DNA of 64,000 nucleotides from Haplodiscus bocki. Its lineage: Eukaryota. Location: the NCBI GenBank assembly GCA_965655095.1, contig OZ296659.1, forward strand, positions 33,914,001 through 33,978,000. The letters run 5' to 3'. Shown here piece by piece: positions 2,057 through 40,327 of the stretch. The notes below the pieces were generated by a model. That model made no database searches, was not told where the DNA came from, and worked only from the letters and a program-made list of their open reading frames with translations. Numbering within the stretch: position 1 is the stretch's first letter; each line of letters begins with the position of its first letter. Position numbers and translations under genes: made by a program.

Positions 2057-2593
2057 TGTAATAAATTGATTAGAGGAAAGAAAAGAAACAATGACGTCAG
2101 CGAATAAGCTGTCAGTTGTCAAATTGAACTTCAAAATTATGCTCAGCGATTACACTTCTATGCTCCAGAAAACAATTAAAGCATGGTTAATAAAATGGAA
2201 CTATTCTGAGACAAGAAGACACCTTATCGCCTAAATTACTGAAAATAACTCGAATTTCTAATTATCAATAATTCAAAAATGTATTCCTCGAGAACGAGTG
2301 AATAACTTAACAGAATACCGTAAATCCATCTCTCAGTGAAAGTCTTAAATTGATAGTTTTCTATTTAAATATGTTCTTCGGTTCATTGACAAACCGAAAA
2401 CAATTGAAGCCAAATTGACGGGGAACGGGCATATAAACCACTAGATTTTCAATATTGAATGAGGAAAAATTGTCTTAAATTATTAGCTGATTGAGCGAAA
2501 TCTTGGACAAAAATCAGAAAATCTAAAAAAAATTATTTATGATCTTCACTGCAAATCTTTTTTTCTGCTAAATCTAAAACAAAAAAGCCTACA
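2057..2593 (+). repeat. 5' LTR of element A
   Basis: TGTAATA...CCTACA; about 90% identical by eye to 11584-12126. Confidence 0.95.
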
Positions 2594-2739
2594 AATTGAT
2601 GGCCATAGTCAACGAACCTCTTTTTCTCATTACTCTAAAAATCTACACTTTTGCAATTTCATTTGTTTTACGATTACACAATCTGCTTCGACTTATCTAC
2701 TCCAAAAAGTAGCAGACCCGAAAAATTTCACCCACAAAA

Positions 2740-4130
2740 ATGATAAGTGCTTCCACTGTCCCATTTCTTTTATTCTTAGTTTCGGTCATTTTTCTTGTAG
2801 TTTTGTCACTTTTTCGTCTTAAAATCAAAACTCAAGCAAATTTTATTGATTTTGTGATGAAAAACTTCTCTGGTACCGAGCCTGAAGATGATGCAGACGT
2901 TTTTGTTAAACAAATTGAACATAAAATTAAAGTAACTTGAGGACATTTTCCCGCTACGGGTAATGATCGAGAAAACTATCGACAAAAACCGTCAACGAGC
3001 ACTTTTTGCACCTTTACTTCGCGGACCAGCAGCAGAATGGTATGCTGCCAATATTAACGAGGATGACGCTGCCCACACGTGGTACTTCATAAAACGAGAA
3101 TTTCGTACACGTTTTACTGATGGTCGGGATAGAAAAAGATTTCGATTTCAGGCTGAAAACATTAAACGTACTGAAAATGAGTCCATGAAAACATGCTTGC
3201 AAAGAGTTTAAAAAACGGCTGAGAAACGTTTGCCTACAATCTACGTCGTTGGGGCCACTGCCGCTCAGCGAACGGCTGCAGACAATCAAATGCAAACCCA
3301 TCGAAACGAAAAATATATTTCATTCGAATCGAAAGGTTTAGTTCCAAATCTTCTGAAGCAATGTTCGTACAAAAGAATCCTTGAAAACCCACTTACTACT
3401 TGGGAACAACTAACTGCTCATCTTATCAAAAAAGATTTGTGTTATGCAATGAGAGCAGATGGCGAGGAATTTTCCTCCTCGAATGACAAATTGGTAACCA
3501 TTGAGGAACAGTTGAAAAGTTTGCAAGAAGCATTCCAATCACACAGTGTAAATGCAGTGAATCTAAACCCGCAAAATCCTCAAATGAATCCAAATTTCAC
3601 CCGTTTTCGAAAACCTGGCCACACGGAAGGCACACAGTAATGTAATGTCCCAAAAAACAGAACCAGTCAAATTTCCGATCCCAAAATTTCAATCTCCCAC
3701 GACAAAAAAACTTTGGAATCTATTCTCACAGAACTTTTCGACCACTCAAAGGAACTCAAAATCAGTGTAATCACAGACATTTTACAACACAACAAAACTC
3801 AGTACAAGCTCGGAATCGTTTTCCTCTAAACAGAAATGGTTCCCAAAGAAACTTTCAAAATCAGCAGCGCAACTATCTCCAAAACTCTTATCGACAGAAT
3901 TACCCAAGCTCCTACCAAAATTATTCAAATCAGCGTGATCCTCAACATCCCCCTTTGCAAAAATCAAAAAAGGAGGCAAACCGAAAACAACTACCAAACA
4001 ATCAGTATAAAAATGAGCCAAATGTCACAGAACAAATCAATATGATCCGACAACATCCGAATACGAATGCTTTACAAATGCAAACTCCTAATGCCCTGAC
4101 GTATCAAGCTCTTCGTGCTGGTTGCCATAC
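2740..4130 (+). pseudogene. gag: gag of element A (frameshifted)
   Basis: FSGTEPEDDADVFVKQIE, LRGPAAEWY and W..IKREFRTRF capsid-like motifs; degenerate zinc knuckle near 3595-3650; N/Q-rich tail. Confidence 0.85.
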
Positions 4131-4131
4131 C

Positions 4132-4560
4132 CTTCTAAAATATATCAAAGGAGACATTTTCTAATCAACAGAGAGCTTAACTCTTTGTGCATTGGCAGAT
4201 TTTGCGATGCGAAAAGGTATCACCGCAGAAGTGGTAGAGAAATTCCCATTTTTGTGAAGTTCCGCTGCGCAATTTTCTTTTGATCCTGGAACATTTTTTG
4301 CCTATTGGCATGAAGAATCTCAGCGCCTTATTTACAATTTGGTAATTCAAGTAAAGTGCAATGATAAATCAAAACCTCCTGATGTAGCCAACGCAAAAGA
4401 GGCATTGAGAGAGCATGCGTTGAGAAATAAAGTGAAGGTGACTGCAATGCCCCGACGGGCAAGCGCTCTTGAAAGATTACCGCGGAATGAAATACAAACA
4501 ATGCTTCCAGACATTTTTTGAAAATCTGGAATTCAAATTCAAGTGCATTTTCTTCGATTT
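4132..4560 (+). pseudogene. TARG1/OARD1 (Poa1p-like) macrodomain between gag and protease
   Basis: One frame with internal stops: LLKYIKGDIF*STESLTLCALADFAMRKGITAEVVEKFP...RLIYNLVIQVKCNDK...EALREHALRNKVKVTAMPRRASALERLPRNEIQTMLPDIF, then a shift into ENLEFKF. It is collinear with TARG1 motifs YVKGDLF, SLAHCISEDCRMGAGIA, YIYYLITK and MPRIGCGLDRL. Confidence 0.88.
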
Positions 4561-4714
4561 TCTTCTTAACGACCGTTATCTGGACCCCGCCGTGATTATG
4601 TCAGTGGAGTCCATAGTCTGTACTCTTCAAATTAAAGTCGTATACGCCTTAGCAATCAAAATGTCGAATATTTGTTGATCTCTATATTCACACCACCGGA
4701 GACGTGAATAAAAA

Positions 4715-5775
4715 TAGTGGCCTTAGAAATTGAATTTCTTCTAAACACGGGGGCAACCTGATCCGTTATAAATTTTAACACTTTTAAGGCCATATCAGAC
4801 GTTGGTCAAAATAATACCGTTGTCCGAACCCCAACTCACACAACTGCAATCGAAAATGTTGAAATTCGAATGTTGGGTTACACAATTCTTCCTCTCTCAT
4901 TGGACTTTGATGGTAATTATGAGATTAAACATAAAATGTGGATTACACACAAACACACGACAAATATTTTGGAAATGCAGTTATTTCAGGAGTATTGCGC
5001 AAGTCTTAACTTCGAAATCCCTCTCCCTGGGTTAAAAACCTTTCAAAAAACCATCAATACATGGCAAACACCAGAAAGATAAAAAGTATCCTGGTTGTTC
5101 GAAATTTTTCCCATAACTCTCAACAAACCAGTCTCGATAGAACCATTGAGTACAGATCTCATAAAACATCAATGCCCTCATGAGAACTCTTGTTATACGG
5201 GAGGTACTACCTACAAGCACTTGAAAACTGCAAAAGTGAAAGGATTAAATTATTATCATACGATGGTAAGTGCAAACGAAAGTTCCTTTCCAATTCTCAC
5301 TGCAAATCAAAATCCAATGCCCATAACTCTTCAAAAAGGACTACTAGGCGATACATTTACTCCAATTTTGGATAAAGGAAAAAGAAATCAACTCTTTATG
5401 ATTCATAAACCGCTCCAAGTAGCAGAAGTCCCAACTGAAAATTGTTGATTTCTTGATGTTGAAGAGATTTTTGAACTTTCAATCGAAGACAAACGAAAAA
5501 ATGAAAGAAATTCTATCAGTTGTCAAGAAGTAAGTAGAGAAACATTCACTCCTTTGAATTTGGACAACGAATGTCAAGAAGAACTTAGAGGGTCATGTCT
5601 ACCAAATTGTAATTAAGCAATTTCTATACACAGAGTTTCGACGTTACCTCAAAATGTTCATCATCACTTTTCACAAGAAGAAGTATCTTTCCTTTCCTTT
5701 TTTGACTTCAAAGATTCGGATCTTACTGATGCGGAAATCAGGTCTGTTTGTCAAATTCTGAATAAAGATAATGAA
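4715..5775 (+). pseudogene. pol: pol 5' part of element A: aspartic protease, linker and first helix before RT
   Basis: LEIEFLLNTGAT*SVIN is a degenerate DTG protease motif (about 4725-4785). FDFKDSDLTDAEIRSVCQIL at 5701-5760 resembles the pre-RT helix and then stops abruptly. Confidence 0.8.
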
Positions 5776-5777
5776 TA

Positions 5778-7604
5778 AATGAGTTTGAGGTTACTGAACC
5801 TTTTACAAACCAGATCAGCTCATTGAGCGATATCCTTAAAAATTTTAAAAAGGGCGAAAATGTCAATGTCCCGCGGACAAAAATTTAAAAAGATTGTGTT
5901 GGAAATGTCACTGAGATTTGTGAGATTGTCAACCCGAACAATGAATTACCTGCCCTACTATCGGTTTTTAGACTGGATCAAGAGAGTCAAGCACAATTCG
6001 ATATTGTCAAAAAGCAAACCCTATCCAACGCTGATGAAAATTTGTCTTCACTAGACGTAAATTTTATCGATCTCGACACTCCACTGACTACGTCTCTTTT
6101 ACTGACTGAACAGAAACTCGACTCCGTATCGTCAAAAAATCGAGACTGGTTAAAAAAAAAGAAGAGAGACCAAGCCCTAAAGACCCGCCATATCATTCAC
6201 GAGCATTCAGAAGCTACGAAAAACTTTGAATTACTTTTCGTTGATCCAGATACAAATCGTGTTTGCTACAAAGAAATTATGCACAATGGTGATCACATTG
6301 AGAAAAAGACTTGTCTTCTTTGTCATTACTGTTTGTAGCGCCTCTCCTGTCACGCTCTCATGAATTGTCAGGCCATTTAGCCCAATCGAAAACATTAGCA
6401 AACTTCAAGAGATATTTTTTCTTCCCAGGAATGTTTAAACGGGTCACTGTTCTGATTATTGACTGTTTGTCATGTCAAAAGCATAAACTAAAACGAAAAA
6501 ATTTAAACCAATCTCCTCCTCAGCCTTGGGGAGGCCTGGAGACTATTGGTTTTCGGACTATTCGTATCTACCATAACGGATCTGTTTATCCTAATAATTC
6601 AGGTATTGAACATTGCCTCGTAATAGTAGATTATTTTTTTCAATTTATCCAAGTCTATCCATTTATAAGTACTTCGGCGTTGCATACAATAGAGCCTATC
6701 GAAAACCGGATTTCAAATTTTGGAATTCCCCACATTATAGTATACGACAGAAGAAGTGCCTTTTTCAAAAAAGAAGCAACTAACTGGGCAACAGAACCAA
6801 GGATTACTTTAGCTCCACTAACTGATCACTCACCATGGTAAATCACTCACCATGGCTAATGGTAAAATTGAAATACAAAATAAACACTTTACTCAATTTT
6901 TCCGTCTTTTTTCATCAACAAATGGCTCAAAATGGGCGTTATTGGCACCAAAATTTGCTTTTGCGCATAATACGAGTGTAGATACCGCCACTCGTTCTAG
7001 CCCTAATGGAAACTTCTTGGTTTCAAAACCTGAAATACCGCTTTCTCTTAAGCTCAGACTTATGAGAGATACAAGGAAACTATGTAACTCTGACTTCTGT
7101 GAGGAATTACCTCCACACACTCTCAATATTTCGCAAACAACTACATTTCTTGATTGATTGTTGCATAAATGTCCTTCACCTCGTTTTTTTACCCGTGAAA
7201 ACCAATAAAAATGATCGTATGCAGAAACTTATTGTGTGTCGAGAGGAATTACCGACAAAGCAAAAGAATATAGGAATGAACATTAGTTGGGGAAAGAATT
7301 GCAAGTAGGACAAAAAGTCCTTCGCGAGAAGTTCACCGGAGAACTCAATAAATCAAAGAAAATGTCTTCTTTCCGTTCAAGCCCACACACGTTTCTCCAA
7401 AAGATTACAAATACCAACTGTGAAACTGAGTTAGATGAAAACCCCGGAAAAATATTACACAGCCATAGGAACCCTTTAATTGAGTATCTTCCAAAAGATG
7501 CATCTGTTCCGTCAATGATTAAGGCTTACAATAGACCTCAAAAGTCGCCCGGTGAGCATCGTCAATTCTATCGAAAATTAAATGAAACTGCTGAAGACGA
7601 CTAA
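5778..7604 (+). pseudogene. pol: pol 3' part of element A: tether and DDE integrase with GPY/F region
   Basis: HHCC motif SHELSGH...DCLSCQ; LVIVDYF, IVYDRRSAF and PWANGKIE (a 17-bp duplication at about 6826-6859 breaks the frame); AFAHNT; LQVGQKVL...HRNPLIEY. Confidence 0.9.
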
Positions 7605-8199
7605 AATCAATATGTACCCCATGAAGAATCGCTATTTACTTTTTTTCCTGCAATAGAAACTCAAGGCCACATAACGATCAGTGATCAAAAATGAAAGACT
7701 AATGAATTTGATTCAGGATATAAATCATGGCATGTAAATATTCTATTCAATACTCCTAAACCATGTTCAAGTACAACTAGGGCTCTAATGGGATCAGCAG
7801 ATGGAAGGGTATTTCAACCAAAGTTCTTATCAAGCTCAACTCTTTACCTCGAGTGCACAATCATAATCATGAACAATCGTCATCGTCTCAGCTACGAAGT
7901 GAAAATACTCTGAGCGATCGATGACCCAAAAGATTTCCGATGCTGCTAGATCTGATCAAAGCAGTTCGCGAAGCTTGAGAGAAACCACTCGTTGCCAACG
8001 ATTGGCAGTCCCTAATTAAGTTTTGGAAAGGGAAATGCCTGATGAATTACGATTTTCTGACAACATTTCTCGAAAAAAATCGTACATCAAACAAAATAAA
8101 TAACCCAATAGTACCTGTCATGTTAAAAATCTGGTGAATATCAACCACAATTATCTTGTTTTATGCTTACAGCTCGAATCAGAACTCCGATACCCTGGA

Positions 8200-10314
8200 A
8201 ATCCCCGTATGTATCATATTTTTCCCGTGTTTTCCGTGTGTTCTGTCTGGTTTCGATCATCACAATGATTTTTAGAACGTAGATCCCTCATTATTTGTGT
8301 TTCATTTTGGTTGCCCAAAAATTACTGAAAATAAACTTTACTCTCTGAATAAAAACTCGAAATGTAACATTGAAGTGAGTAATTCTGAAACTACCCTTAT
8401 CTTAACCCTCGACCTGTAACAACGCGTTTACTCGACGACTATTAGTGCCACAAGATGCACCATTCGCCGTGGCGAAAAAAATGGTATGGTGGATTACATG
8501 GCCATAGTGACATCGAAACTAAGCAAAACTCATTAACAGTAAATCTATCAATAGAACCTCAAGCATGCGCTGTAGCTGCAGAAAGAGGACCAAATTCAGT
8601 CCCAAAAGACCATGGCGATAAGTCAATTCCAATAGTTTAAAATGTTCTCAAAGATAGTGTGATTACGGAAAAAAACGATGGAGATTAGGTAGGACACGAT
8701 GATCCAAAATCTCCAAACGAATGTAAAGATACTCGCTGGGTGGTGAGAGATTCCTACCGGACTTTCACGGAAAAGGTAATACTAAACGTTGATCTCAAAT
8801 CAATGCAAATCCGAAATGTCAAAAATTTTGTTTTACATTATAAAGTGTCAGAGGGAGGAAGTCCTAGTACCTTTCTAGACGTTGAAACATACACTTGGAA
8901 CCAAACTGAAAACTGCTTGTTCAAGAAAATTGGCTCTGTAAATAATGGTCAAATGATTAATTATAATGACCAACATTTCATTTCAACAGATCCAAAATCC
9001 AAGTCGGACGATCCAAATTTCTTTTTCGAAATTTTCAGTGATCAGCAAAAGATTTGCAGTCATCCGCTACCAGTATACTTTACAAATTATGATGATTTTT
9101 TCATGCAATACTCTGGCGGTTTTGACATCAATACTGGTCAACCAAAGAGCCCGCATCAAAAAAAACTTACTCTTATTAAATTTCGCATTGAGGGTGATAA
9201 TGAAATTGACTCTCGAAATTTACAGTATGATGTACACCTAGGAGCTAAATTTGACTGTATTCTTCATCGAACAAATCTGAATATTCATGTCTCTCAAGTA
9301 AAATTGATACAAAATCAGTGTTAACTTGAACTTGCCCAAAGGCTTAAAATTTTGACAATGTCTTTAGAAAACACGCGATTAGCTGGATAACTTCTTACTG
9401 GTAACCGTTCTATATTTCGTGACACTAATGGGTGTGTCGGTTGGCTATACCATTGCCCAAAAGTCAGATCCACAATACGTGTGATGGAAAAATGTTATGA
9501 TAAAACACCAATATTTTATAAAAAACTAGTGCATTTTGCTGATCCAATCACTCGTCAGACTTTTCATTCTGCCAATGAAAATTCATGTCAACATGCGACT
9601 CAAAATCTGTTTCAACTCGATATGGACAATGATGATTCTTGGTATAATTTGATACCTCATCCAGTAGTTCATAACAAGCCATTAGTACTTTCGCCGACTA
9701 TGTTTTCTCGTCCAAGTTTGCATGTAATTTATTTTTCTAATAATGTGGACTGTACACACGGAAACAGTTGTCACATTTTTGGAACGATGTTAAAATTGGC
9801 TATCATTCGAAATATATAATTAAAAAAACACTCGTGAACTGGTCAGTCAGAATACTGATTCATATCAAGTAGTAAAGGATTACTCTTCTCCAGTTTACCT
9901 TGCCAATTTTATGTCACCTGAAAATTACACTGACGGCTTTAAAGAAACCGTTGGAAATATCACTCATTAACTGGAAGAACTGGGCATTTTTGCATTGTTT
10001 TTGTTTGTCAGAGTGGTAATTAACGTTATTATAGTAGTAGTGAACGCATTTGAAGTCCAAGAACTAACTAGAAAAACTGTAGGACTTTCGAAAGAACTCC
10101 TCGCAGCAACGTATGATCTGTTTTGTTGTCAGTAATTAGGTCAATTTTTGGGATAACCGATAATAAGGAAACGAATCCACTATATGAAACAAGTAATGCA
10201 TTGTGCATTGAAGCGCCTAATGAAACTAAGGAAGAGGCTCCCTTCCTTTATTCAGACACAAAAATTTATCGACAAGGAACCGCTCCTCAAGAGGTCCCCG
10301 CACCTCTTCATTAA
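8200..10314 (+). pseudogene. env: env-like glycoprotein of element A (chuvirus G / class III fusogen-like)
   Basis: Hydrophobic N-terminus; FGCPK..LYSLN..C; YTWN..ENC; QNQC*LE..LAG*LLTGNRS..GWLYHCPKV..KCYDKTPIFY..HFADPITRQTF..C; TM segment about 9980-10050; short tail ending 10314. Confidence 0.8.
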
Positions 10315-10424
10315 ATTAATAATAAAGGGGAAAGGGAAAAATGTACATGTTTGTTTGGTACCTAACAGTTGTATGAGTAAATTTGTCGCATCAAATAAAT
10401 CTTTTTATTGCTTAGCTGCCTGAG

Positions 10425-10867
10425 GATGGTAAACTACTCTCAGATCTTGACTAAACGTCACTAAGTCCAAAAAGCGAAAATTTTGATGGAAAGTTAAAAA
10501 TTCGTAATCCTATACCAATCGTCGAATCTGCAACTTTACGGGCAAAGCAAATGGTATCTTTAAATACACGAAAACGTCACTTTCACCACAGATCATTTAT
10601 CAATCAATAGAGTACAGGCTTGAAAAAACTAACCAACCATCATTGAGAAACCGATTGGACCTTGAACAAACTCTAGAACGGTACGAAACATACACAAACT
10701 GTCCATGTGGAAATCCCGGATTTGTAAATTACTTGAAGTATTCATTGAAGAAAGACATCAATCAAAACAGTTGGAGAATAATCCACTTTGACTTTCCAAG
10801 AAATAATTACATGATAAAAACAACGATCTGAACGGACAAACTTTATGGGTATCACCAAAACAAATGA
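10425..10867 (+). pseudogene. Accessory ORF X1 downstream of env (unknown, degraded; has CPCGNPG motif)
   Basis: Frame open from about 10508 to 10831. Reading through one TGA leads to a TGA at 10865-10867 that overlaps the next ATG. Confidence 0.45.
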
Positions 10868-11292
10868 CAGCCTTTCCTGATTTGGACAACTTAACACCAA
10901 GTGTAAAACCGAGTATGGTTGCAGATTTTTCAAAAATTCCCGCTGTCAAACGGAATATGGTTTCTGTGAGTTCACAGACTGAAGTAAAAACTGCCTCGCT
11001 AGGAACTGCATGGACTGAAATACATGATATTGAGCTGCAAGAAAAATGCTATGGACTGAAACGAGATCTTGACAGACAAAAACGATTAATTGAAGAATTA
11101 GAGAAGAAACTACAAATCAAAACGAAAGAATCACAGATGCATAAAGATGCTTACAAAACTATCAGAGATGACCACGTAGAAACTCATGTATTAGTATCTA
11201 AAAATCTGAAAAATATGCAAGCAATGGTTGAAACGTCTGAACTAAGACGTGCTGAATGCATTAAAATGATTCAAACCATTCTGGTCAAATAA
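10864..11292 (+). CDS. Accessory ORF X2 (coiled-coil protein; probably extended to 11502 originally)
   Basis: Intact 142-aa ATG ORF with heptad-like LKRDLDRQKRLIEELEKKLQ. The same frame continues to 11502 across two stops. Confidence 0.6.
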   Translation: MTAFPDLDNLTPSVKPSMVADFSKIPAVKRNMVSVSSQTEVKTASLGTAWTEIHDIELQEKCYGLKRDLDRQKRLIEELEKKLQIKTKESQMHKDAYKTIRDDHVETHVLVSKNLKNMQAMVETSELRRAECIKMIQTILVK

Positions 11293-11583
11293 TTAAAACC
11301 CTATAAAAACTCTCTGGAAAAAATGCTTTCGGGTGCAACTAAAACAAAAGGAAAATTTTACAAACATCATAGTCTATTCAGTTTAAAAAAAGGAACCTTA
11401 AAGCCAAATTGGGCTTATTCCTGGCTACCAGACGGGAAATGAGAAGAGATAGAAGAATGGAGCTCAAAATACAATCTACCACTCGATATTGAAAATACAT
11501 AACTGCTCTGACAGAATTAGATACAGCTGTGGTCTGCAGATAGTTAGAAGTAGCACTTTAAATTTCTTAACAAGGGGGTTAGT

Positions 11584-12126
11584 TGTAATAAGCTGATTTG
11601 AGGGAAAAAAAGAAACATTGACGTCAGCGAATAAGCTGTCCGTTGTCAAATTGAACTTCAAAATTGTGCATCAGCGAAGATGGTTCTATGCTCCAGAAAA
11701 CAATTAAAGCATGGTTAATAAAATGGAACTATTCTGAGACAAGAAGAAACCTTATCGCCTAAACTACTGAAATTAACTCGAATTTCTAATTATCAATAAT
11801 TCAAAAATGTAATCGTCGAGAACGAGTGAATAACTTAACAGAATGCCGTAAATGCATCTCTCAGTAAAAGTCCTAGATTGAAAGTTTTCTATTTATATGT
11901 GTTATTCGATTCATTGATAAACCGAAATCTATTGATGCTAAATTGACCGGGAACGGGTATATAAACCACTAGTTTCTCAAAATTGATTATGAAAAAATTT
12001 GTCATAAATTATGAGCTGATTAAGCGAAATCTTTGACAAAAATCATAAAATCTAAAAAAAATAAATGATTGATCTTCACTGTAAATCTTTTTTTTTCTGC
12101 TAAATCTGAAACAAAAAAAGCCTACG
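11584..12126 (+). repeat. 3' LTR of element A
   Basis: TGTAATA...CCTACG (terminal CA mutated to CG), followed by TSD CTTT. Confidence 0.95.
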
Positions 12127-13239
12127 CTTTTTATCAGAACAAATTGTCCATTTTTGTTTTCTACCATCGACTGAATCTTGTTACGGTTATTTTATAAGAG
12201 GAAAACATAAAGAAATCTCAGAAATAGCCAAGAGCTCTCGTACGAAGTTTCGTGGTAGTGAAACAAAATTTGGTGGGGAGAAATTTGTGATACCCACCTT
12301 TGATGTAAAAAAAATGTTCCATTCCAGACACTGTAAGATATGTTATATAACCCTAAGAAATGTTTTGGTACTGCGACACAAAAAAATGAGACGAAATTTT
12401 GAGACACCTTCTATAGTTTACACGAATTTTTTCAACCAACAGATGAGCAGCGATGACTTTGAACTGTTGTCGGGTTCTTGTTATCTTTTACCAACCCATC
12501 AACATAAGAGACTCATAGTTTCTCTATCAATCCGTGGCAGTAGCTCTTTGTAATTTGAACTGTTGATCAATTTTGACCTGGCAAGAAGATCGAAACAGTC
12601 TGGCTTTTTCTCGAAATTTGCGAACACATCAGGCTCAATATGAATTTCGGCCTGTTTTCTTAGAACAGCGTTCTTGTTTTACATCTTGAAAACTTTCCTC
12701 AAAAAGCTTGGCTGAGTGAATTCAAATTCGCATCCATTATTTCACTGCAAAGGAAAACTTTGCTGTATGACAGGAGGAAACTGATTCCATGACACGAAGC
12801 AAGTGCTTAACGGACTACAATAGCGCTCTGTTCGCAGGGACATTACGAAAGAAGTTAAAAATTCGGCGTTTCCGTTCACTGTCTCGACAGTCTCGGCATC
12901 ATGATGTTAACAAACGGTTGCAGGAGTGATGGACCGAAAGAGCGGCAACTATCACTTCAGAAGCACTGAAGCGGGCTCCAGATGTTCACCACTATGTGAT
13001 TGGAGCCCACTAAGTTCCTAATTGACCACTTGACTCGAACCGAGCGGTCAATGAAACAAATGATGCTTACTGGTGAGGTCGCTTCAGCAAAAAAGATTGA
13101 CTGCAGTTCTCCAGAATTTCGATAACAAGCAGAGAAGATATTGCTCCAGTAAATATTGACTTTAAATTTTAACCCAGAAGGTTCTCTGCGTCTGGGTTCT
13201 CTAAAAACGAGAAGTTTTTAGACCCGATTAAGACTTGGT

Positions 13240-15459: not shown

Positions 15460-18245
15460 TAAGTTGTTTTCGGACATGGGGCGAAAAACTTTCGGCTTTT
15501 GTCAGAATCTTTCCAGCGGGGTTGTCTGCATTCTAAGTGTCCGAAGATACATTTTGAGAAAACTTTATCTTGAAAAGTGTCCAAGTTTGTACCACTTTTA
15601 GATTTTGAACCAAAACTTTTCGTCAAAATTTTTCGCCGGAGTTGTCAAAACTTCATTCTTCGTGTCCATATGAACGATTTGAAGAATTCTTTTGTAGAAA
15701 AAAACTTTTTTTACCATTTATTGACCTTGAGCAAAACAATTTTGGCCTTCTAGCAAAAGTTTTCTTTGGCAGGGTTGTCAACACTGCAATTTACGTGTCC
15801 ATAGGGACATATTTGTTTGAGCAAAAAGCGTTTTTTAAAAAGCTATATTTTTAAAAACTTGCCGACATTGATTGAAACATTTGTGGCTTTTTGTCAAGGG
15901 TTTTTCCACAAGGTCGTCAAAACTGCTTTTTACGTGTCCATTGAAACGTTTTTTTTAAGAAAAACGTTTTTTTCTCAAGGAAATATAATCTTCCTTATTA
16001 TTTTCGGACTTGGAGCAAAAAAATTGGCCGCTGCCAAAATTTTTGTCGGCATGGTTGTCAAAACTTCATTCTAGATTTCCATGGGAACAATTTGGAGGAA
16101 AAAATGTTTTCTGAATAGATTCTTTTACTTTCATCAGTTTTGGCCATTGAGCAAAAGAAAATCGGCCTTCTGTCAAAAAGTTCTTCGGCCAGGTTGACAA
16201 AACAAAATTCTAAGTGTCCGAAGGTACCTTTTGAGGAAAAACAGTTTTTTTTCAAAAAATTTATACTTTTTATTCATTTTCGGACATTGAACAAAATAAT
16301 TCCAGCTTTCTCACAAAAATTTTTGCCAAAGTTGTCAAACTGCATTCTATGTGTCCATAGGAACAGTTTAAGAGAATCTTTTTTAACAAAATCATCTTTT
16401 TGATATCATTTTTAGTATTGAGCGAAAAATTTCCGTCTTTTGGCTAGAAAATTTTGGCAGGGTTGTGAAAACTGCATTCTGCGTGTCCATGGGAACACTT
16501 TTTGCAAACTTTTTTGTTTGGGAAAATCAATTTTTAAACACTTCTGGATTTTTAACTGAAAGTTTTTGGCTTCCTGTGGGAATTTTTTTGGGCGGGATTG
16601 TCAAAACTACTTTCTACGTGTCCAGAAGTACACTTTGAGAAAATTTCATCTTGAAATAAAATCAAGGTTTTTTCTCAATTTTAGATTTAGAGCCGAAAAT
16701 TTTTGGTCTTCCGTCCAAATTTTTTCGCCGTGCTTGTCAAAACTTCATTCTACGTGTCCAGATGACCATTTTGAAGAAAAGAAGTTTTTTGGAGAAAAAA
16801 CTTTTTCCATCATTTTCCGAACTTGAGCGCAATAATTTCGCATTTCTTGCAAAAAATTTCTCTGGCAGGAATGTCAAAACTCTTGTTTACGTGTACAAAG
16901 GAACATTTTTAAGGAAATAGCGTTTTTTGAAAAAATTTTTTCATAAAAGTTTGCGGACATTGATTGAAACATTTGTGGTCTTTTGTCAAGGGTTTTTCTA
17001 CAGGGTCGTCAAAACTTCCTTCTACGTGTCCATTGAAACGTTTTCAGGAAAAACAATTTTTTCCAAAAAAAAATCTTCCTCATCATTTCCGGACTTGGAA
17101 CAAAAAAGTTGGCCTTTGCCAAAGTTTTCATCAGCATGGTTGCCAAAACTGCATTCTACGTGTCCATGAGAAAGATTTGAGGGAAATTTGGTTTTCTGAA
17201 GAGATTTTTTCACTCCCATCAGTTTTGGCTATTGAGCGAAAAAGTTTGGGCTTTCTGGCAGAAACTTTTCCGGCAAGGTTGCCAAGACAGCATTCTGAGT
17301 GTCCAAAGGAAACTTTGACCTTTTGAAGGAAAACTGTTTTTTCTCAAAAATTTCTACTTTTTCAATCATTTGCGGACTTTCAACAAGAAAATTCCAGCTT
17401 TTTGACAAAATTTCTTGACAAGTTTGTCAATCTGCAATACATGTGTCCAAAGAAACTTTTTGAAGAAAAACAATTTTTATCAAAATAACGTGTTTTCAAA
17501 ACTTTTTCGGACAATGACCGAAAATTTTTCGGCCTTTTTTCAAAACTATTTTGTCAGGAATGTCAAACCTGCAGTCTTGGAGTCCATGGGAACATTTTCG
17601 GGGAAAAAATTTTCCGACAAAAACTATCTTTTTGATATCATTTTCTGACATTGAGCGAACATATTTCTGTCTTGTCAGAAAAAATTGACAAATTTGTCAA
17701 AACTGCATTCTTCGTGTTCATGGGAACAGTTTGTGCAAACGTGTTTTTTGAGAAAAAAAAAATCCATATTTTCATCATTTTTAGATTTTGAGCTGAGATT
17801 TTTTGGCCTCTTATCGGAATTCTTTTGGCGGGGTTGTCAAAACTACATTCTACGTGTTCAGCGGAACCTTTTGACCAAAGTTTTTATTTCCGAAAAGAAA
17901 AAACTTTTCCTATCATTTTCCGGCAATGAGCGAGACAATTTTCGCCTTCTGGGAAAAAAATTTGACCTATTTGTCAAGACCGCAGTTTACGTGTCCATAG
18001 TGATAATTTTGAGGAAAAAATATTTTTTGAACTCATATTTTTCGGAACTGTTTTCTGTCTTTGTTTGAAACAATTTGGGTCTTTTGTCCAATACTTTTCT
18101 TCGGGGTTCTCAAAACTACGTTCCACATGTCTAGACTCACTATTTGAGGAAAAACTCCTCGATGGAAAAAATTTTTGTTTTCAAAAATCATTTTCTGTCC
18201 CGTAGCAAAAATTATTTCAGCCTTTCGTGGAAAAAACTGGGGCAG
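15460..18245. repeat. Degenerate tandem satellite, ~135 bp monomer, ~21 copies
   Basis: Core gttgtcaaaactgcattctacgtgtcca recurs at about 15521, 15642, 15773, 15912, 16053, 16192, 16330, 16461, 16597, 16733, 16871, 17004 and on to 18105. Confidence 0.9.
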
Positions 18246-18519: not shown

Positions 18520-21500
18520 AGTTGAAATGGAGGTATGAGTTGTATCAACTGGTTGGGATTCTAGTTCTTCCATCAGATCACTTTTCAGGGATGAAATACT
18601 GCAGTGTGAATAAATTTTTTTGCAGAGTAGGAGGTTGAAAAATTCACATAGGTCAAATTATAGTCACAGTTTTTCCAACAAACTATTTCATAACAGAAGA
18701 CAAATTGAGAGTCCGTAATACAGAGTTTAAAAGAAAAACTTGTTTCAAAGATGAAGAGAGAAGGAATGAAAGATTTCAGAATCTGAGAGAAATGAAAAAT
18801 GCAGAGTTTTTGAATTATCTTTATTAAATACTATCAGTTTACTTGATCAGTTTTTATGTGATAGCTTGGAGTATTGTAAAATTTGTCGTATTTTATGATA
18901 GTTTGCAGCATTGTTGATTTGATCAATTCTTTATGATTTTTGTGATGAATGTAGATAATATAAAGGTAGGGAGGTTCTAGATGAAAACTAGTTTTATTAA
19001 ATGTTTGGAGGTTTGCATCAGAGAGTTGGGTCAAAAAAGATGATGTTATATAGTTATTATCGAGAGAGGAGTTTGCAGTTGAAAGTTTTGTGTTATGCGA
19101 GCAATTTGAGGGAGAGTAACAATATTCTCAGTTCAGTTTTTCTATATTGATTTTTTTCGATTAATCTTGAGGTTGATGGTTCATTCATTTCACAAAATTG
19201 GGGTATGAATTCTGGATTTTTTCACAGATATCCCTTTGAATATTCCAGGTACTACACTTGGAAGAAAATTCAAGAGGGCCATAAAGTTGTTGAAAATTTT
19301 TACGTTGACGTTTGTCTCAATCAGCATCAAGGTAAATCAGTGACCAATTTTAATGTTGAGTGAAAAAAGTATCCATGAGCTACAGAAATTAGTATCGTTA
19401 TGTTTTCATGAAGTCTATACTTAATTGGTATAGAATTATGAAATTTCAGAAGAAATGTTAGAAATTATTGCAGAAATAGAAAAGTGGGACAATGTGTTCT
19501 ATATTGAGTGAGAAGAAAATATGGTAAGCCAAAAATTGCAACAAAAGCATCAGCAAACCAATCAAGAGTAAACAGAGGAGAAATTTTCAAGAAATGATCT
19601 TATAGACAGACACTTGAGACATTTTAAAAGTTAAAGCGGTTTCTATTAGGAGCTGAATATTAGAAAGCAGTTAAATGTTTTTCAAAGGTAGCTAAAACGT
19701 CAAATGAGATGGCCTTTCCCAAAATCTTCTGTGTGGTATCTGAGGATTTCATGAAAAAAAAACATAATTCCAGAAATTATTTAATTCAGCATTGGAATAA
19801 TATCCAGCTTCTACTGCAGTGAAATCATTTGGGCTTACTGCAGATGGAACTTGTTTTGGTTCAAAGAGCATTGAGGTAGCTCGTAATACAGGTTTATGTG
19901 TCAGTATATAGTGTTCATTGTTATCAAGGTCTAATGCTAAGAGGTTCTGTGGATTGCTATCACAGGACAAAGAAGTAGCATAAGTAAAAAACTGTTTTGT
20001 TATTGGATCAATGTACATTACAGATGCTGATAGTATATTGGTATACGATCCAAACACTTAACAGAATCTCACAGAGGTGAAAGAATAAGAAGACAGTCAC
20101 ATAACGGAGCAGTGAAACTTTCTACATAAAGCAAGTTACTCCGGTTTCCCACAAAAAAGGTAACCAGCATTCTGCGGATTTTGAACAGACATTGCTAAAA
20201 TATTTAGCAATTCTGTCCGTTCTAGTTAACAGATATGACGTATTGTATTGCGTTCTTGAATAGTCGAAATTTTAATTGCATATTCGATGGAATATTCTAA
20301 CTTGATATTTATTTGAGCATCCTAATTTACAGTACTGAAACCTTTTGAATCAATCAGTGGAGGAGAAAAATTTATTTCTTCTAGAGTCATAGACTAATGG
20401 TCAAGACATTAGCTGTTGACTAAATGATGAGCATTCATAAACAACAATTCAATGTTTGTTTCCAGTGTTCATAATAAAACCTTCATGGTAAGTGACACAC
20501 AACATCAGGATACTGATTTGTATGCATTTGCGTTGGTTTTTCACATAAGATATTTTTTGTGAGAAAATTTCTAGTTTTGATAAAGTTGTAGTAATAGTTC
20601 GCAGTGGTGAAGTAGTATAAGGAAGTACGGTTGGTAAATTACCTTTGTAAAGTTTTTCAGGTTTTTTTCCAGTTTCCTCCAAAAAAAAAACAACTTTTTC
20701 CAACCAAAAACTGTTTCTCAGTTTCGACATTTGTCTAATAAAGTCAAGGATATGAAACATTAAACATATTTCTGCAAGAAACCAGACAATAGTATAGGGA
20801 TGTTTCAGTGTTGGTTTACAAGAACCATCAGATTGCAGACTACGAAAGGTATGACCTGCAGGTAATAGTTTATCTGATTTATCATCATAGTCCAGAGAAT
20901 ATTCTCCAATTCTTCATGAACAAATATCTTCATCAAAAAGATAATCTTTAGAAACTTCACATCTTGACTTTGAATTTTCAGTACTAGTAATCTAATCATA
21001 AATATTTGGTTGATAGGTGAAAACACCAGTATGTACACTATTCAATTTAGTTACAGTGAACGGCATTAGTGTCTATACAATTTTAACCTGAAAATTCAGT
21101 CTACCAAAATTAGTGAAAGAGTCATTATGAGAATATTGGTTTAATATGGCGCTATCCCTACCGTTAAGGTTTCGGAAAATGTTTTTGCACTCCCTAGCGT
21201 CCGGTCCTTTTGGTATAGGTAAAGATTTAGCATGCCAATCCAAATGATGAAGTCTATATTATTCGTTGAGGGCACCTCGACCACGAAACACACGAGTTTT
21301 TTGAATAGTTGCAGAGCAGCGGAAGGCTTTAATTCTTTTCGTTATAGCATGAATAAAAACAGAGGCAAAGGTTCAGGGGTATTCAATTTCAGAGGCAACT
21401 TGTGTACATGTCTGTACCAGAGTCAAGCTATAGTGTCTTCAAAAAGGTTGTTTCGGACAATCATAATGAGTAGCTAGGAGTTGAAGTAAGTTTTCAGAGG

Positions 21501-21558
21501 TGATTGTAGTAGCAGTTTGCAGCAAAGAGAAAAATAATATTACATAAAATAAAATCAT
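18520..21558 (-). pseudogene. env: env-like glycoprotein of element B (same family as element A env)
   Basis: Signal peptide MILFYVILFFSLLQTATT, then HYDCPK..YSLTLVQTC; LAMSVQNPQNAGYL..GNRS; MYIDPITKQFF..SCDSNPQN; TM about 19300-19550. The 3' end is uncertain. Confidence 0.8.
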
Positions 21559-23699
21559 AGGTCTCAGAAAATAGTTTAGTATTTTGAACCGGAGATAGGG
21601 CTGTAAAATGTTATACATCCCCCTTGATGATCAAATGGAGGTTCGTCAGAGGAAGTAGTTTGAAAACGAATCGCAGAATAAAAAAAGGAAAAGTTCGGTG
21701 TTTGATTTGAGTTAAGGCTGGAATTGGATGAGGATTCAATCCATTGAAATTTACAGTTTCTTCAAACTTTAGTTCAGTTGAAGTGTGAATTACTCCAGTC
21801 ATTTCTCGAATACGAGTAACAGTGGAATATTGCAGACTATTGATTTTTCTGTTTACAGGATGAATGTGATATCTCAGATCTTGTCTGGGCTGATTAAGTA
21901 TTTGATTATCAATTCTCAGTATAAATTGTTATGGATCAGGCGTTGAAGGCCTAGAATTTTACTATAGTGTATGATTTGGAAGATCAGCAGTACTAATAGA
22001 ACTCAAAGAACCGATTGATTCTTGGTTTCCTTTTGGAGGAGTAGATCTAGGGTATGAGTCAACAGTAAGTGAAGTTTGAATACCAGAAGAAGCCCTTAGA
22101 CACATTGGAACACCACAAAGGAGAGGAAGGAAGATTTTCAGAGGTAGATGAACTAGGTTGTTCGTGTTAACGCAATATTGGAGAGATCGAATTTGATGCT
22201 GATCTTTTACGAGAGGAAGACAATGTTTGAATTGGTGTTGATCTCAAGTAGCAGGAAAGAGCAGCTACAGTTTGAGAAGAGGATATTGATGCATTTTTTG
22301 ACGAAGTTCTATATTCACAATTCGGAAAATCCTCGAAAGAATATGTGCAGTAAAAACTCGAAGACAGTTTTGGATATAACAGGGAAATTGTTTCACAGCT
22401 GCTATCAGAAGCAGTTTTTAAATAAGGTAGATTTACAGATGTAGATGGTTCGTCATTTGTTTGTGCAGAGCAGAAGTGGTTGGTTTATTACAGAAGGTAG
22501 CGTCAAACGACCTTCGATGTTTGAAAGATCTTGATATTCTAGCAACAGTTTTAATAGGGAGCGGAAGTGGTGATGGAATTGGAGGAAGATTTCTATCAAA
22601 CGGATCTGAGGTGTGAATAGGTCTAGCGGTAAAAGCCGGAGTGACAGATGGAGCTACCGGTAATGGTGATAGAGGAGGTTTTGAACAGTTACAGAAGGAC
22701 TTTGAGTTTTCAGAGGAGTTATTAGATTTTTCACAATCGTTTGCAGTTGTTACAGTAGATCTAGTATCTATATCTTTCGAGTTTATTTCAGGAACTGCTG
22801 AAGCAAGCGGTAAGTTATTTTTAATAGATCAATCCGGAGATGAATCCAGGATTACGTCAGTATCAGAAAAGAAGTTATTAGTTACAAGATTTATTGAACA
22901 GATACAATATACAATAACCTCCGGAGAGTTTGAGTTGCGAAAAATTTCAATATCGTTTCAGTTTTTTTACACTACAATGGTAATTGTTTCGAGGTTATCA
23001 GTTTCAGTTTTGAAACAATTTTTTTCAGAACGTTTAAACTTTTCCAAAATAATTAGCAGAGTCTCAAGAGCAAAAAACAAGAGAATTAATCTATCATGAA
23101 CAAGAAAAAAATTACCTTGAATAATTTCGTAGGCTTTCATTTACCAAATATATTCAACTCGATTCACTCTCGATAAGGAACTTTTTTCATTTTAACTTAC
23201 GTAAAAATGATTATTTATCCAGAGAGGAAGGTAATGGTATACAAAGACAACTATTATTTTCACGGTAGTGGTCGTTGATCAGATTTGGTTCGACTATTTT
23301 TATTGAAAGTTTATGATTGGTTGAAAAGCAGGGAGGACTTTGATTACTTTGCGAATGACGTACGAGAATCATATGCAGTATCGGTGTCGGGAAGATCAAA
23401 AAAATCAGGATTATTGCTCAAAGATTAAAATTTTGACGGTGTTGGTTTTTATCAAAATATTTCAGAATCAGATTTTGATGGAGAGTGATAAAAAATGAAG
23501 GATTATCATATAATTTTTAAGATTTGGATAAAAGAATATCAAACATAAATTATTGATCATCATCAGCATTACAGAATGGGTCATCAGCAAAAACTTTATC
23601 ATCAAATTGAGACTTGTTGTATGAAATATAAAATTCATTTTGAATATTGTCTGTTGCATCAGAATCGTGAGTAAGTTCAGAATTTGGTTCATTGTAGAA

Positions 23700-24880
23700 T
23701 TGAATATGAGGAAAGAGCAAAGATTCTTTAGGACAATATGGAATCAAATGGTCTCAATGTGTGTGGTATGTTTTTCCTCCTTGTGTCCATAGTTCCTACG
23801 TGACTTCCATAGGCTTGTTAACCATTTTGAAACAACCAATTCGAAGTGGTTTCAGTTCATCTGAAATCACAAAAGCTTTAGAATTTCGATGCGAGACAAA
23901 TGAGTTCACCGGCGATGGTGTATCAAGGTTGGTTGAAGTTCGCATTGTATATGCAGATTATTTTTGATTGCGTAATGATATACTTTTGAATAATTTGCAG
24001 CATTGCTGTTTCAATAGCGAGAAACGAAGCTGAAATTAGTTTCGACATGATGCTATGAAACACTGGTTTTAAATCAGTTGATTGGTAATGAGAATGAGGA
24101 GCAACTTCTTAACAGCATTGTGCAGTATATTGGCGAAAAGAATTTCAGTAAAAATTCAATTCAAAGTTCAGTGAAATGCGACGTTGTTTTTGAAAAACTG
24201 TTTCAAATGGCGAAAGATGCAGATAAGATAATGGTTGAGTTTTGTGAGCGTAAGAAAAGAAATGTACTTGAATGGACCAGCTTTAAGGATTATCCTGTAG
24301 AAATAATTTCAGATGGCTTTCAACATTTTCATTTTATACTTCAACAAGTCCATTTTTCCAAGGAGCATATGAAGTTGTTGGAGAATGACGAAGATTGTAT
24401 AAAGTACAACATTTTCCCACTTCAGGATTAGGATATTCTGTTCCTCTATTTGTAATCAGATAATGAAGAGGACCAACTTTGTAAACCCAGTGGTGAACTA
24501 AGGAAGTTACAACTTAACAGGCATTTCTTTGGTGTTGGTACAGTTACAATGTATTTGCTAAAAAGATCAACAAATATTATGTATGTGTAACAGCTTCTTT
24601 CAAGTGCAGGGTTTAGTGGATTTTTGGTATCGTTTGAGATACAATGGATCAAAAAGATTGACAGGTTTGAAAATATTAGGATTGCAGCTTCATTTCGTTT
24701 TATTTTTTCCTGTTTATGCTTTTGGCAACCAATGCAGTCATGAATGGAAATTGACAGCCACTTTGAATAAATGGAATATGATAGGGTTGATTAAATTTAT
24801 ACTATGCAATATGCAGACCAGCATGATGGTGTCCATGAACTTTATGGAATACAGAATGAAACAATATCAGTGAAAATCAT
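23700..24880 (-). pseudogene. pol: Integrase of element B
   Basis: HGHHHAG...HDCIGCQ (HHCC); IIFVDLFSKYIVTVP; YAPWKNGLVE; LKPLRIG...HLIPYCPKE. Confidence 0.88.
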
Positions 24881-24957
24881 CGGCGAGAGTTTTGAGAAAA
24901 ACTGTTATCATCAGTGTTTTGTGGAAAATTATCATTATTTTCTGAGGTCGAGTACAT

Positions 24958-26490
24958 GCTTATCACCAGATGAAAATCCAGTTAATTTGATAGTTTCATC
25001 ATAAAATGTAGCCTGTTCGGATCACATGCAGTTTTCTAAATTTTGTTTGCCCTCGCAAGCTGTGATGCTAAAGGTTCCAGAGGCCAAGATTCAGACAATT
25101 GATCAGTGTTTGAGTTGGGATGTCTACCATCCAACCCATTTTTAATAGAATCAGTTTCTTGCATGATGATCAATGCTTTCGGAAAAATAGTTCGATGATT
25201 TGTTTTTTCATGAGGCGTTTAGGCAGTTTGTTTTATTATATTTTTTTAAGGATCGTCCAGCAAAGTTTTCAAGTTGACTCGATAAGGAATAGTAATTTTA
25301 GTATGTCTTTGTCTTCGCATTTTAGCATCGGGTTTCATTTCAATCGAAAACGGAATAGAAGATTTTCCGACATCTTCATTGTGTGTAGCATAACAGTTGA
25401 TAATTTCAACAACAATTTTGCAGAGATGAAGATATTCAGAAACATTAGGACCAGAGATTTGAAAAGGAAGTCTCCTCGGAAATATAAAAAATTCTTTAGT
25501 GTATGGTGAAGGTGGAAATAGTCAAACAAATATTTTTTCACTCGGTTTTACATTACAGATAGTATTGGGTATCTATGCAGATCAACATGAATAACATCCG
25601 AAGAATTGTTTAATTGTTTCATATCTTGATCATGAACATTAAGTTGTTTAGTTATTTTGGGTTGGTGCGTACGAATTATGAACCCGTGCATTTAAATCAA
25701 TAATTCTATAGTGAAATCATTTTAAAGTGGTAATAGTATTTTCTATATATCTGATTCTTCCAGTTGAGAGTGAATAGTAAAATTTTTGATCATTACTGAG
25801 CACAAATTTTCCGAAGTCTTCGATAAAATTGCCATAAAGGAGAAATCTCATTTCAATTGTGACAGAAACTGATTTTGAGGCAATTCAGCAAAAAATCCTG
25901 CATGATTTTCAGTCTCCTGCAATAAAGTTTTTGAAATCTCCCGTAGAAAGTATAATGATTGTACACTATTGGGTTTAATATATGTTTCCTTTTTTGATTT
26001 CATTTGATGAATAAACGAAAAGAAGGGGATCTTCTTTTCAATCAGTGTGGCAAAAAAGCAAATCTGGGTCGATCATTGAAGGAATGTTTGAAGTTCATTG
26101 TAAAATCTCGGAAAATAAAACTTTGTATGCATTTCTCAAAGAATGGCGTTCTGAGAATGTTTTACTTAATATCAGCTACAGCGAAAAAAAATCATGAAGT
26201 ATCTTTATTTTATTTCTTTTGATAAAAACAAGTTACAGAGATATCCTGTTTAATTGGAATTTCAGACTGATCTGCAATAGTCAGCGTTTTTGATGTATTA
26301 TGTTGATCATGATTACAAACGTTGAAAATTTGAGTGATCATCATACAAGCTGGTAAATTAAGTACCGAAATAGACGCACCGCTATCCAATAGAAACGCAA
26401 ATTCCAGTCATGAATGTAAATTTGAATCCGTTTTGTTTTCAGATTGAATACACAGTTTATAAAACCAATTTGTTGGAGTTATAGCAGTTT
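24958..26490 (-). pseudogene. pol: Protease and N-terminal part of RT, element B
   Basis: FLLDSGASISVLN near 26395-26355. RT N-terminal motifs DVGK, WPLEPLASQLARANK and DETIKLTGFSSGDK, ending at about 24958 with no YxDD. Confidence 0.85.
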
Positions 26491-39100: not shown

Positions 39101-40327
39101 ATTCCAGGAGGTGAGTCGTTTTGATGAATTGATCACATGAAGGAAAACTATTGGCTTTGAAGACAGCTTTGATATTGGAAGCATAGCAAAGGTGACTATT
39201 GTAATGGAATAGCTGTACAGTTTTAGAAAAATTGCCCACACTCTTCTCCGCAAGCTCCCCAATCATAGATCCCCCTACAATGTCAATGTCGTACAGGAAA
39301 CTATAAACTTGAATATTGTGCTCCACTGCTGCAATATCTTCCATACAAACAAGTCGGAAGTTTGCAGGATCAATCCTACCAGTCTTTTCCGGGAATTGAA
39401 TAAATAGTTCAGACTTTCCCTCTTTGAGACTTTCATTTCCATGTAAATACAACGCTAGAGCTATAAAGAGACATAAACAATCTTTATACGGTTTTTGGGG
39501 TTTTTCTCCGCAAGTGTTAAGCACTTGACGGAAGGATTTTTCACTAGTGGATCTAGTAATAGAACGTCTCTACACCCCATGGGATTTTCCTTGAGTCATG
39601 CTGCAGAAAAGGTAACATTAATCAATTTGTAGATCTTCTCGTCTTTTGTACACGATTCAAGGACAACGGTGTTACATGGTAGATTATTCATTTTTGTCAA
39701 GTTTTCTGCGGCAGCAAAAAGTTGAATTCATTCCAACAGAGTTTTTGTTTTTCGTGCAAAATAATACCAACAACTACCTTCTTTTACGTTTTTGATCGCA
39801 AACCCGAATGCTACATTCAACTTATCTGCACATTTGAGTCTGCCGAAAAGATGATCCATTTTTCCCAACAAAAATTTCGGATCCAGAAAGTCCATAGCAA
39901 AGTTAAAAACTCTGTGTCTACCACGCTACATCTCGCTCGCCACCAAAAATTGCTTGCACGTATGTAGTTCATCTTTCAAGGTATTGTCATTGACATCTCC
40001 CATTATGTTTGTAGCCTCAAAATTTAAAGTTACTGATCCTCTCTGTGCGCCATGTTCCCTCCTCTTATGTTCTCGCAATATGTAAAAGCTGTGAGAAATT
40101 TTAACATATTTTTTGCAAAGAAGAATATTTGTATCAATTCCTGACGAGTGTTTCTTCACAATGTGAAATTTCATTTCATCGCTGAACTTTGTTGACAAGT
40201 TTGTACGAGAAAGACATATAAAGGATCCAGTAGAACAACCTTTTTTGTGACGCGTAATGTTAATTCGAGTAGTTTGGGTACCATAAGTTTCACAAATTAT
40301 GTTTTTGCTGCGATTGAGGGAAGGCAT
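33150..40327 (-). pseudogene. polB: Protein-primed family B DNA polymerase with N-terminal C2H2-like fingers (internally duplicated)
   Basis: FEFESICV (ExoI), GFSSAKDD (ExoII), WHNNKDVVPTLEA (ExoIII), GGPSIIFRR, DASQLYAY (A), ELLANSLYGYQ (B), LDTELLYLAL (C). Confidence 0.9.
33837..39670. repeat. Near-identical tandem duplication, unit ~2917 bp
   Basis: 33837-36753 is repeated at 36754-39670. ORF pairs are offset by 2918 with only scattered substitutions. Confidence 0.97.

Follow-up and report, generated by a model that had tools for sequence, protein, structure and literature searches.

A decayed env-carrying Ty3/Gypsy element of Haplodiscus bocki whose sister copies keep a TARG1-type macrodomain at the end of Gag and one 3' accessory gene

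The analysed window, a stretch of 64,000 nucleotides of Haplodiscus bocki DNA (assembly GCA_965655095.1, contig OZ296659.1, positions 33,914,001 to 33,978,000 of the forward strand), contains on its plus strand a long terminal repeat (LTR) retroelement at positions 2057-12126. The 5' LTR (2057-2593, 537 bp, TG..CA, with a TATA-like box near 2432) and the 3' LTR (11584-12126, 543 bp, TG..CG) were determined by direct-repeat comparison, and equal 4-bp target-site duplications (TSDs), CTTT, were found at 2053-2056 and 12127-12130. The alignment of the LTRs resulted in 485 matches and 50 mismatches, a Kimura two-parameter (K2P) distance of about 0.10. A primer-binding site complementary to host tRNA-Ile(AAT) in 11 of 12 bases lies at 2597-2608 and a polypurine tract at 11569-11583. 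The first-pass annotation, made from the sequence alone, had described the locus as a TSD-bounded relic of an enveloped Gypsy-type virus with a macrodomain, a class III env and two accessory 3' open reading frames (ORFs); the boundaries were borne out.

Every gene of the window copy is broken and the element is dead. Stops number roughly 7 (gag), 17 (pol), 7 (env) and 4 (3' gene), besides frameshifts, and overlapping segments may count some of them twice. The presence of gag, integrase and a membrane glycoprotein was confirmed by Pfam-type matches to Retrotrans_gag, H2C2 integrase and the PF24664 glycoprotein with E-values of 9e-5, 8e-11 and 5e-14, respectively. The gag gene (2830-4635), in three frame segments, comprises a capsid region, a zinc-knuckle region, an N/Q-rich linker and the C-terminal macrodomain (4144-4554). 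The latter is indeed present, being 75% identical to those of the sister copies, though in the window copy it is dead, with 3 stops and both residues of the catalytic pair gone. The slippery heptamer that the sisters have in the gag/pol overlap (4626-4635) is altered. The pol remnant (4617-8100) contains the protease (PR), a deletion junction (5774-5779), the integrase (IN; H2C2 and rve), an SH3-like C-terminal domain and a tail. About 1.55 kb, corresponding to residues 387-904 of the 1677-aa sister Pol, i.e., the reverse transcriptase (RT) and RNase H (RH), is missing. Since only one of 40 scored matches spans the junction, the deletion is private to the window copy; the earlier reading of a gag-macrodomain-protease-integrase layout therefore describes this copy and not its family. 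On the same count a non-autonomous, RT-less subfamily was ruled out. The broken env (8138-10314), with a splice-acceptor-like CAG ending at 8172, encodes a hydrophobic N-terminus, a Cys-rich ectodomain, a transmembrane segment and a tail. The 3' gene, ORF4 (10416-11502), is split into 3 frames, is preceded by an acceptor-like TAG ending at 10415 and has its likely start ATG at 10551; its parts are a basic patch, a beta module of about 60 aa, an SQT motif, a coiled coil and a helical C-terminus.

The family of the window element, termed family A, was studied in the 1.5-Gb host genome. An env-fragment search resulted in 150 scored matches, 60 with at least 50% identity, some of them two pieces of one copy, and 90 with 26-32% identity. 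Eleven copies were fetched, namely the ten best of the close ones and a further one. They are about 85% identical to the window copy and about 11.6 kb long; LTR pairs, 95.6-100% identical, were found in nine of the ten best copies, and 4-bp TSDs in all eight with complete LTR pairs. Family A was recently active and copied recently. The sisters have gag of 601-602 codons, pol of 1677, env of 727-749 and one 3' frame of 362, each gene being unbroken in at least some copy, and the intact layout is LTR, tRNA-Ile primer site, gag-macrodomain, PR-RT-RH-IN, env, ORF4, polypurine tract, LTR. The macrodomain and the 3' gene, the absence of which from sister copies would have spoken against the initial description, are both kept; the locus is thus upheld as the remnant of an env-bearing Gypsy-type family in which both are conserved.

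The assignment to Ty3/Gypsy is based on the PR-RT-RH-IN order, the Gypsy-type RNase H and the H2C2 integrase of the sister Pol, together with TG..CA ends, TSD, tRNA primer site and polypurine tract. A BEL/Pao element with a chuvirus glycoprotein was rejected, as Pfam detected only Gypsy-type domains in the sister Pol. As 26 of the 31 copies have the slippery heptamer ahead of the gag stop, we infer that Gag-Pol is made by -1 frameshifting. In the sister copy that was checked, 12 of 12 bases of the primer site match host tRNA-Ile(AAT). Genes of this tRNA type are arranged in tandem with a spacing of about 380 bp at C5:79527000-79603000 of the host and beyond; most of the 311 tRNA-Ile(AAT) pattern matches appear within this array, where Val and Thr anticodon variants are also present.

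The last 160 residues of family A Gag match human TARG1/OARD1 (C6orf130) across the whole domain (E 6e-22), the macrodomain itself being 137 residues long. In a PDB sequence search all six top matches were TARG1 (five, E about 6e-22) or DarG-like, and the generic Macro model of Pfam scored the domain weakly (E 6e-4). The Lys84 and Asp125 equivalents of TARG1, its catalytic pair according to the available part of PMC9967889, remain intact in 27 and 29 of the 31 family A copies, respectively. Both are invariant across six families, the others being 38-40% identical to family A; no more than 23 columns of that alignment show no variation, and they include this pair along with the pocket motifs. 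By whole-domain similarity and the Lys/Asp pair, which human TARG1 and bacterial DarG have in common with the sister copies, the domain is classed as a macrodomain of TARG1/OARD1 type and predicted to be an ADP-ribose eraser. In contrast to those enzymes, it is here part of a retroelement Gag or Pol, and its activity is a prediction.

Selection was assessed in 10-32 copies per region by classing variants against the commonest codon of each column; variants shared by 3 or more copies were separated from private ones, which were taken as decay after insertion. The ratios (omega) are approximate, as few variants were counted and the copies are related to one another. The shared-variant omega was 0.09 for the macrodomain (7 non-synonymous and 22 synonymous), 0.16 for env, 0.18 for the capsid region, about 0.2-0.3 (0.19-0.28) for ORF4 from codon 46 and 0.44 for the Pol tail. 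ORF4 codons 1-45 and the wrong-frame control gave 0.75 each, and private variants 0.6-1.3. As judged from these variants, the macrodomain, env and ORF4 are under purifying selection, which is strong on the macrodomain.

In two further families of the host, B and C, gag, pol and env are common with family A at 38-39% identity, and the macrodomain lies between protease and RT. Family B elements are 19-20 kb long with LTRs of 2.4-2.5 kb that are 99.5-99.9% identical, and the only full copy among three of family C is 16.8 kb. Both families have extra small ORFs and a TRAF/MATH gene at the 3' end (E 1e-17). In family B, e.g., at C12:58827000-58847000 of the host, one ORF lies ahead of gag and several in the pol-env interval, one of them antisense and of about 210 codons; the pre-gag ORF is homologous to the pre-env ORF of family C (E 2e-18). 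The family C copy at C8:30568000-30582000 of the host, with LTRs 99.9% identical, is a recently mobilised non-autonomous form in which gag is fused to the Pol tail, most of pol is deleted, and env and the TRAF gene are unbroken. In a quick RT tree (70 of 107 rows past the length filter, with no named Metaviridae reference rows), families A-C and eight outside proteins fell into one clade of 12 rows, which a long branch sets well apart from conventional Gypsy RTs.

A second Gypsy lineage was found in the host with a cellular TARG1 query (C11:38929000-38948000, C5:100969000-100988000 and C4:81834000-81853000). Its Pol is 1580-1628 aa long, its RT is about 27% identical to that of family A, its LTR pairs are 99.5-100% identical, and its macrodomain lies between RNase H and integrase. 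The post-pol ORF (786-812 aa) has a furin-like site and a hydrophobic peptide and gave no significant Pfam match; it is probably an F-type env, unlike that of family A. Among the further 3' ORFs, one has a beta module, a coiled coil, a weak J-domain match in one family (E 2e-5) and an HPD motif in two families. Thus, the macrodomain occurs in the host elements at the end of Gag, between PR and RT and between RH and IN, in two lineages. RT monophyly of the two TARG1-bearing lineages was rejected in a quick tree of 28 rows by the approximately unbiased test (p-AU 1e-59).

The macrodomain searches of the host genome scored 150 and 111 of 5,700-5,800 first-look candidates. The host also has cellular TARG1-like genes of its own; two cellular-type genes, one with an unannotated N-terminal region, lie adjacent at C2:12300000-12316000 and are a possible source of the captured domain. 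Moreover, 31 PARP-domain matches were found in the host genome, several in frames of more than 1,600 codons. Outside the host, the closest matches of the domain are proteins (P0004-P0009) in which DNA ligase III carries a TARG1-type macrodomain at its C-terminus, and an alphavirus-like replicase (P0010) carries such a domain as well. A Pfam scan of 14 related or conventional Gypsy polyproteins detected a TARG1-type macrodomain in none, and the four matches of a longer-protein search included no outside Gypsy polyprotein with it, which is weak evidence. No RT was found in 11 viral loci carrying the domain. Among 150 RT-search matches a single degenerate macrodomain, without the catalytic motifs, was observed, at the end of the outside polyprotein P0097, which falls within the RT clade of families A-C.

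The env of family A matches PF24664 over positions 25-638 of 653 (E 1e-49), and the atlas leads were chu-like, gp64 and rhabdovirus glycoproteins with scores of 0.87-0.89, all below 0.9. The protein has 17 cysteines and, by hydropathy only, a hydrophobic N-terminus and a transmembrane segment; no R-x-K/R-R site was found in it. A PDB sequence search with env gave no match, and no env or RT relative was found in IMG/VR. Foldseek matches of a low-confidence model to chu-like glycoproteins had a template modelling (TM) score of about 0.12. The sequence comparisons assign env to the homologues of chuvirus/gB-type glycoproteins, so that the class III designation of the first-pass annotation stands at the level of sequence, and a usable structure did not back it. 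Where env begins, 30 of the 31 copies keep an acceptor-like CAG.

The two accessory ORFs proposed at the 3' end proved to be one gene. ORF4 forms a single 362-codon frame in 7 of 119 matches, and the single-base gap responsible for the split in the window copy is missing from 29 of 32 copies. Translation most likely starts at Met46, giving a protein of 317 aa, because omega is low only from that codon; the Met46 ATG is found in 28 of 32 copies, and the acceptor-like TAG before the gene in 28 of 31. Pfam gave only weak coiled-coil matches and the atlas none; all 8 matches of a protein search were near-identical copies (75-97% identical). The model, with a confidence (pLDDT) of 50, shows three strands (120-146) and a long helix (189-274), with generic helix matches only in the structure search (best Z 7.7). 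The beta module gives the impression of an SH3/Tudor/chromo-like fold in the model, and it found nothing below E 0.26 in PDB. Short ORFs behind env in families B and C are its homologues (E about 1e-7 to 1e-5), and a post-env ORF of a metagenome contig that has no DNA match to any host locus compared gives a weak match (E 0.002); the identities are 25-36%. A comparison with the module behind env in the second lineage detected no homology (probability 0.4). The SQT motif just before the coiled coil is presumably comparable to dynein light chain sites.

Parts of this combination have been described. Gypsy elements with gB-type env, the 'ancient errantiviruses', are reported across many phyla in the part of Chary and Hayashi (eLife, PMC13524379) available to us. 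They share with family A the LTRs, the gag-pol-env and PR-RT-RH-IN orders, recent multi-copy spread and a chuvirus-G-related glycoprotein, and, by hydropathy, the env of family A has the N-terminal signal and C-terminal transmembrane segment of this group. In contrast to them, family A adds a macrodomain, which that available text does not mention, and a fourth gene, of which it describes none, and its RT stands on a long branch away from conventional Gypsy RTs. Fish epsilon-like endogenous retroviruses (ERVs) carrying genes for a macro domain or CNPase (Basta et al. 2009, compared here by the description in the available text of PMC4977317) are likewise enveloped LTR retroelements with a captured macro domain, but belong to Retroviridae. 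The planarian Burro/GYPSM1 giant Gypsy elements carry many captured regulatory domains, including MATH/TRAF (PMC6431247, partial text), as do families B and C, whereas family A has no MATH gene; the Burro env is F-type and lies inside a 4,900-aa polyprotein, unlike the separate env of family A, and a macrodomain is unmentioned in that partial text. A Burro-type giant Gypsy (MATH, BIR, ankyrin) was rejected, MATH being found only as the 3' gene of families B and C. In Oikopleura Tor elements, invertebrate LTR elements, env comes from a separate RNA, and the accessible text does not mention a macrodomain (PMC4402516). Mosquito BEL/Pao elements, as cited in the available part of PMC13524379, have a chuvirus-like env as in family A, the pol domains of which are of Gypsy and not BEL/Pao type. 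Rotifer LTR elements have varied extra ORFs (PMC5408684, in part), and according to the available text of a survey of ADP-ribose erasers, in which transposons are unmentioned, few viral TARG1-like proteins keep all catalytic residues (PMC4245714).

The claim that the whole combination is undescribed is overstated: gag-pol with gB-type env and macro domains in fish ERVs were already described, and apparently new here are TARG1 in a Gypsy Gag and its repeated presence. In the literature searched, with subscription journals and Repbase outside its scope, neither TARG1 in Gypsy Gag nor its repeated recruitment was found described. Database annotations of such domains exist in some retroelement polyproteins; given these and that scope, absence from print is not proven.

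Viral macrodomains are known as counter-defences of RNA viruses against PARP-based immunity, most being of MacroD class. We are somewhat inclined to regard the family A domain as a particle-borne eraser working against host ADP-ribosylation of element proteins or nucleic acids, because its catalytic residues are conserved, its position is free and it is repeatedly present in enveloped lineages. The purifying selection and the 31 PARP-domain matches of the host also speak for it. Gag-macrodomain would be translated from genomic RNA and Gag-Pol through the -1 frameshift, which would put the eraser on almost all Gag molecules; it would likely be packaged, released by the protease inside the particle and undo host ADP-ribosylation. 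Env and ORF4 would likely come from subgenomic RNAs with conserved acceptors, env would allow cell-to-cell passage of particles, and ORF4 is likely a dimeric coiled-coil adaptor, perhaps linking the particle to dynein light chain via the SQT motif. Several points weigh against this reading. The activity, substrate, particles and transcripts of the element are predictions from sequence, and action of the host PARPs, here domain matches, on retroelements is presumed. In none of the 11 near-full sister copies are all four genes unbroken together. The env model (pLDDT 30, 10-row alignment) is unusable. A search of the 3' portion of the LTR, the leader and the initial 600 bases of gag detected no consensus splice donor. 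The macrodomain tree (p-AU 0.29) fits independent capture as well as exchange between lineages. TARG1 is, moreover, also a DNA-repair enzyme, so a role in integration fits the same selection data.

In such a role, which we consider rather unlikely, the macrodomain would strip PARP-made ADP-ribose from cDNA ends, integrase or gap repair factors or, alternatively, bind PARylated chromatin to steer insertion, like chromodomains in chromoviruses. It explains the selection data equally well and agrees with the reversal of DNA ADP-ribosylation by TARG1 in human cells (PMC9967889, in its available part), with the ligase III fusions as best outside matches and with the second lineage, where the domain directly precedes integrase. 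The positions on Gag in family A and between protease and RT in families B and C are less easily reconciled with it, as the domain need not be tethered to integrase there, and the rarity of the domain in Gypsy polyproteins (0 of 14 by Pfam, and only P0097 among the RT-search matches) also argues against it. The macrodomain might instead have a structural or RNA-binding function in the particle, without catalysis, and be kept because it aids packaging or stability. Its place at the end of Gag, after the zinc knuckle and the N/Q-rich linker, and the degenerate copy that ends P0097 would suit this; with the catalytic residues and pocket motifs among the invariant columns of six families, it is improbable. 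Useless hitch-hiking host fragments, to which the host's own TARG1-like genes and the purely near-identical ORF4 homologues might point, are largely refuted by the purifying selection on the macrodomain and ORF4 and run counter to the retention of the beta module behind env in families B and C and the metagenome contig; such an origin of the extra genes is hardly credible.

A wider form of the eraser reading, proposed only tentatively, is that the host restricts retroelements by ADP-ribosylation and that two unrelated enveloped Gypsy lineages reply with packaged TARG1 in three positions. If true, this would be the retrotransposon counterpart of the coronavirus/alphavirus macrodomain, within a clade whose complex elements reach 20 kb and also carry TRAF-like and other accessory genes. 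TARG1 with its catalytic residues intact, retained by many young Gypsy copies of two lineages in three positions, suggests either that an invertebrate and its retroelements are in conflict over ADP-ribose or that integration includes an unrecognised ADP-ribose step. Invertebrate env-bearing Gypsy elements can match complex retroviruses in gene richness, and families B and C would be likely to escape surveys restricted to 10 kb and to short distances between pol and env.

As for the RNAs, the sister-copy leader has an acceptor-like pyrimidine tract and CAG directly upstream of the gag ATG, again with no consensus donor found, and trans-splicing of element RNAs is a possibility. The four sequencing runs covered the contig evenly, with no clear splice joint; they looked genomic and are mute on expression. 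Elsewhere in the window, the minus strand holds at 19752-25503 another Gypsy-like element, decayed further, with fragments of pol and an env that shares 23-28% identity with the gB-type envs of families A-C. A degenerate tandem array lies at 15526-18155, a 2.9-kb tandem duplication with 99.4% identity at 33834-39665, and a gag-like ORF of 530 codons from another LTR family at 61882-63474.

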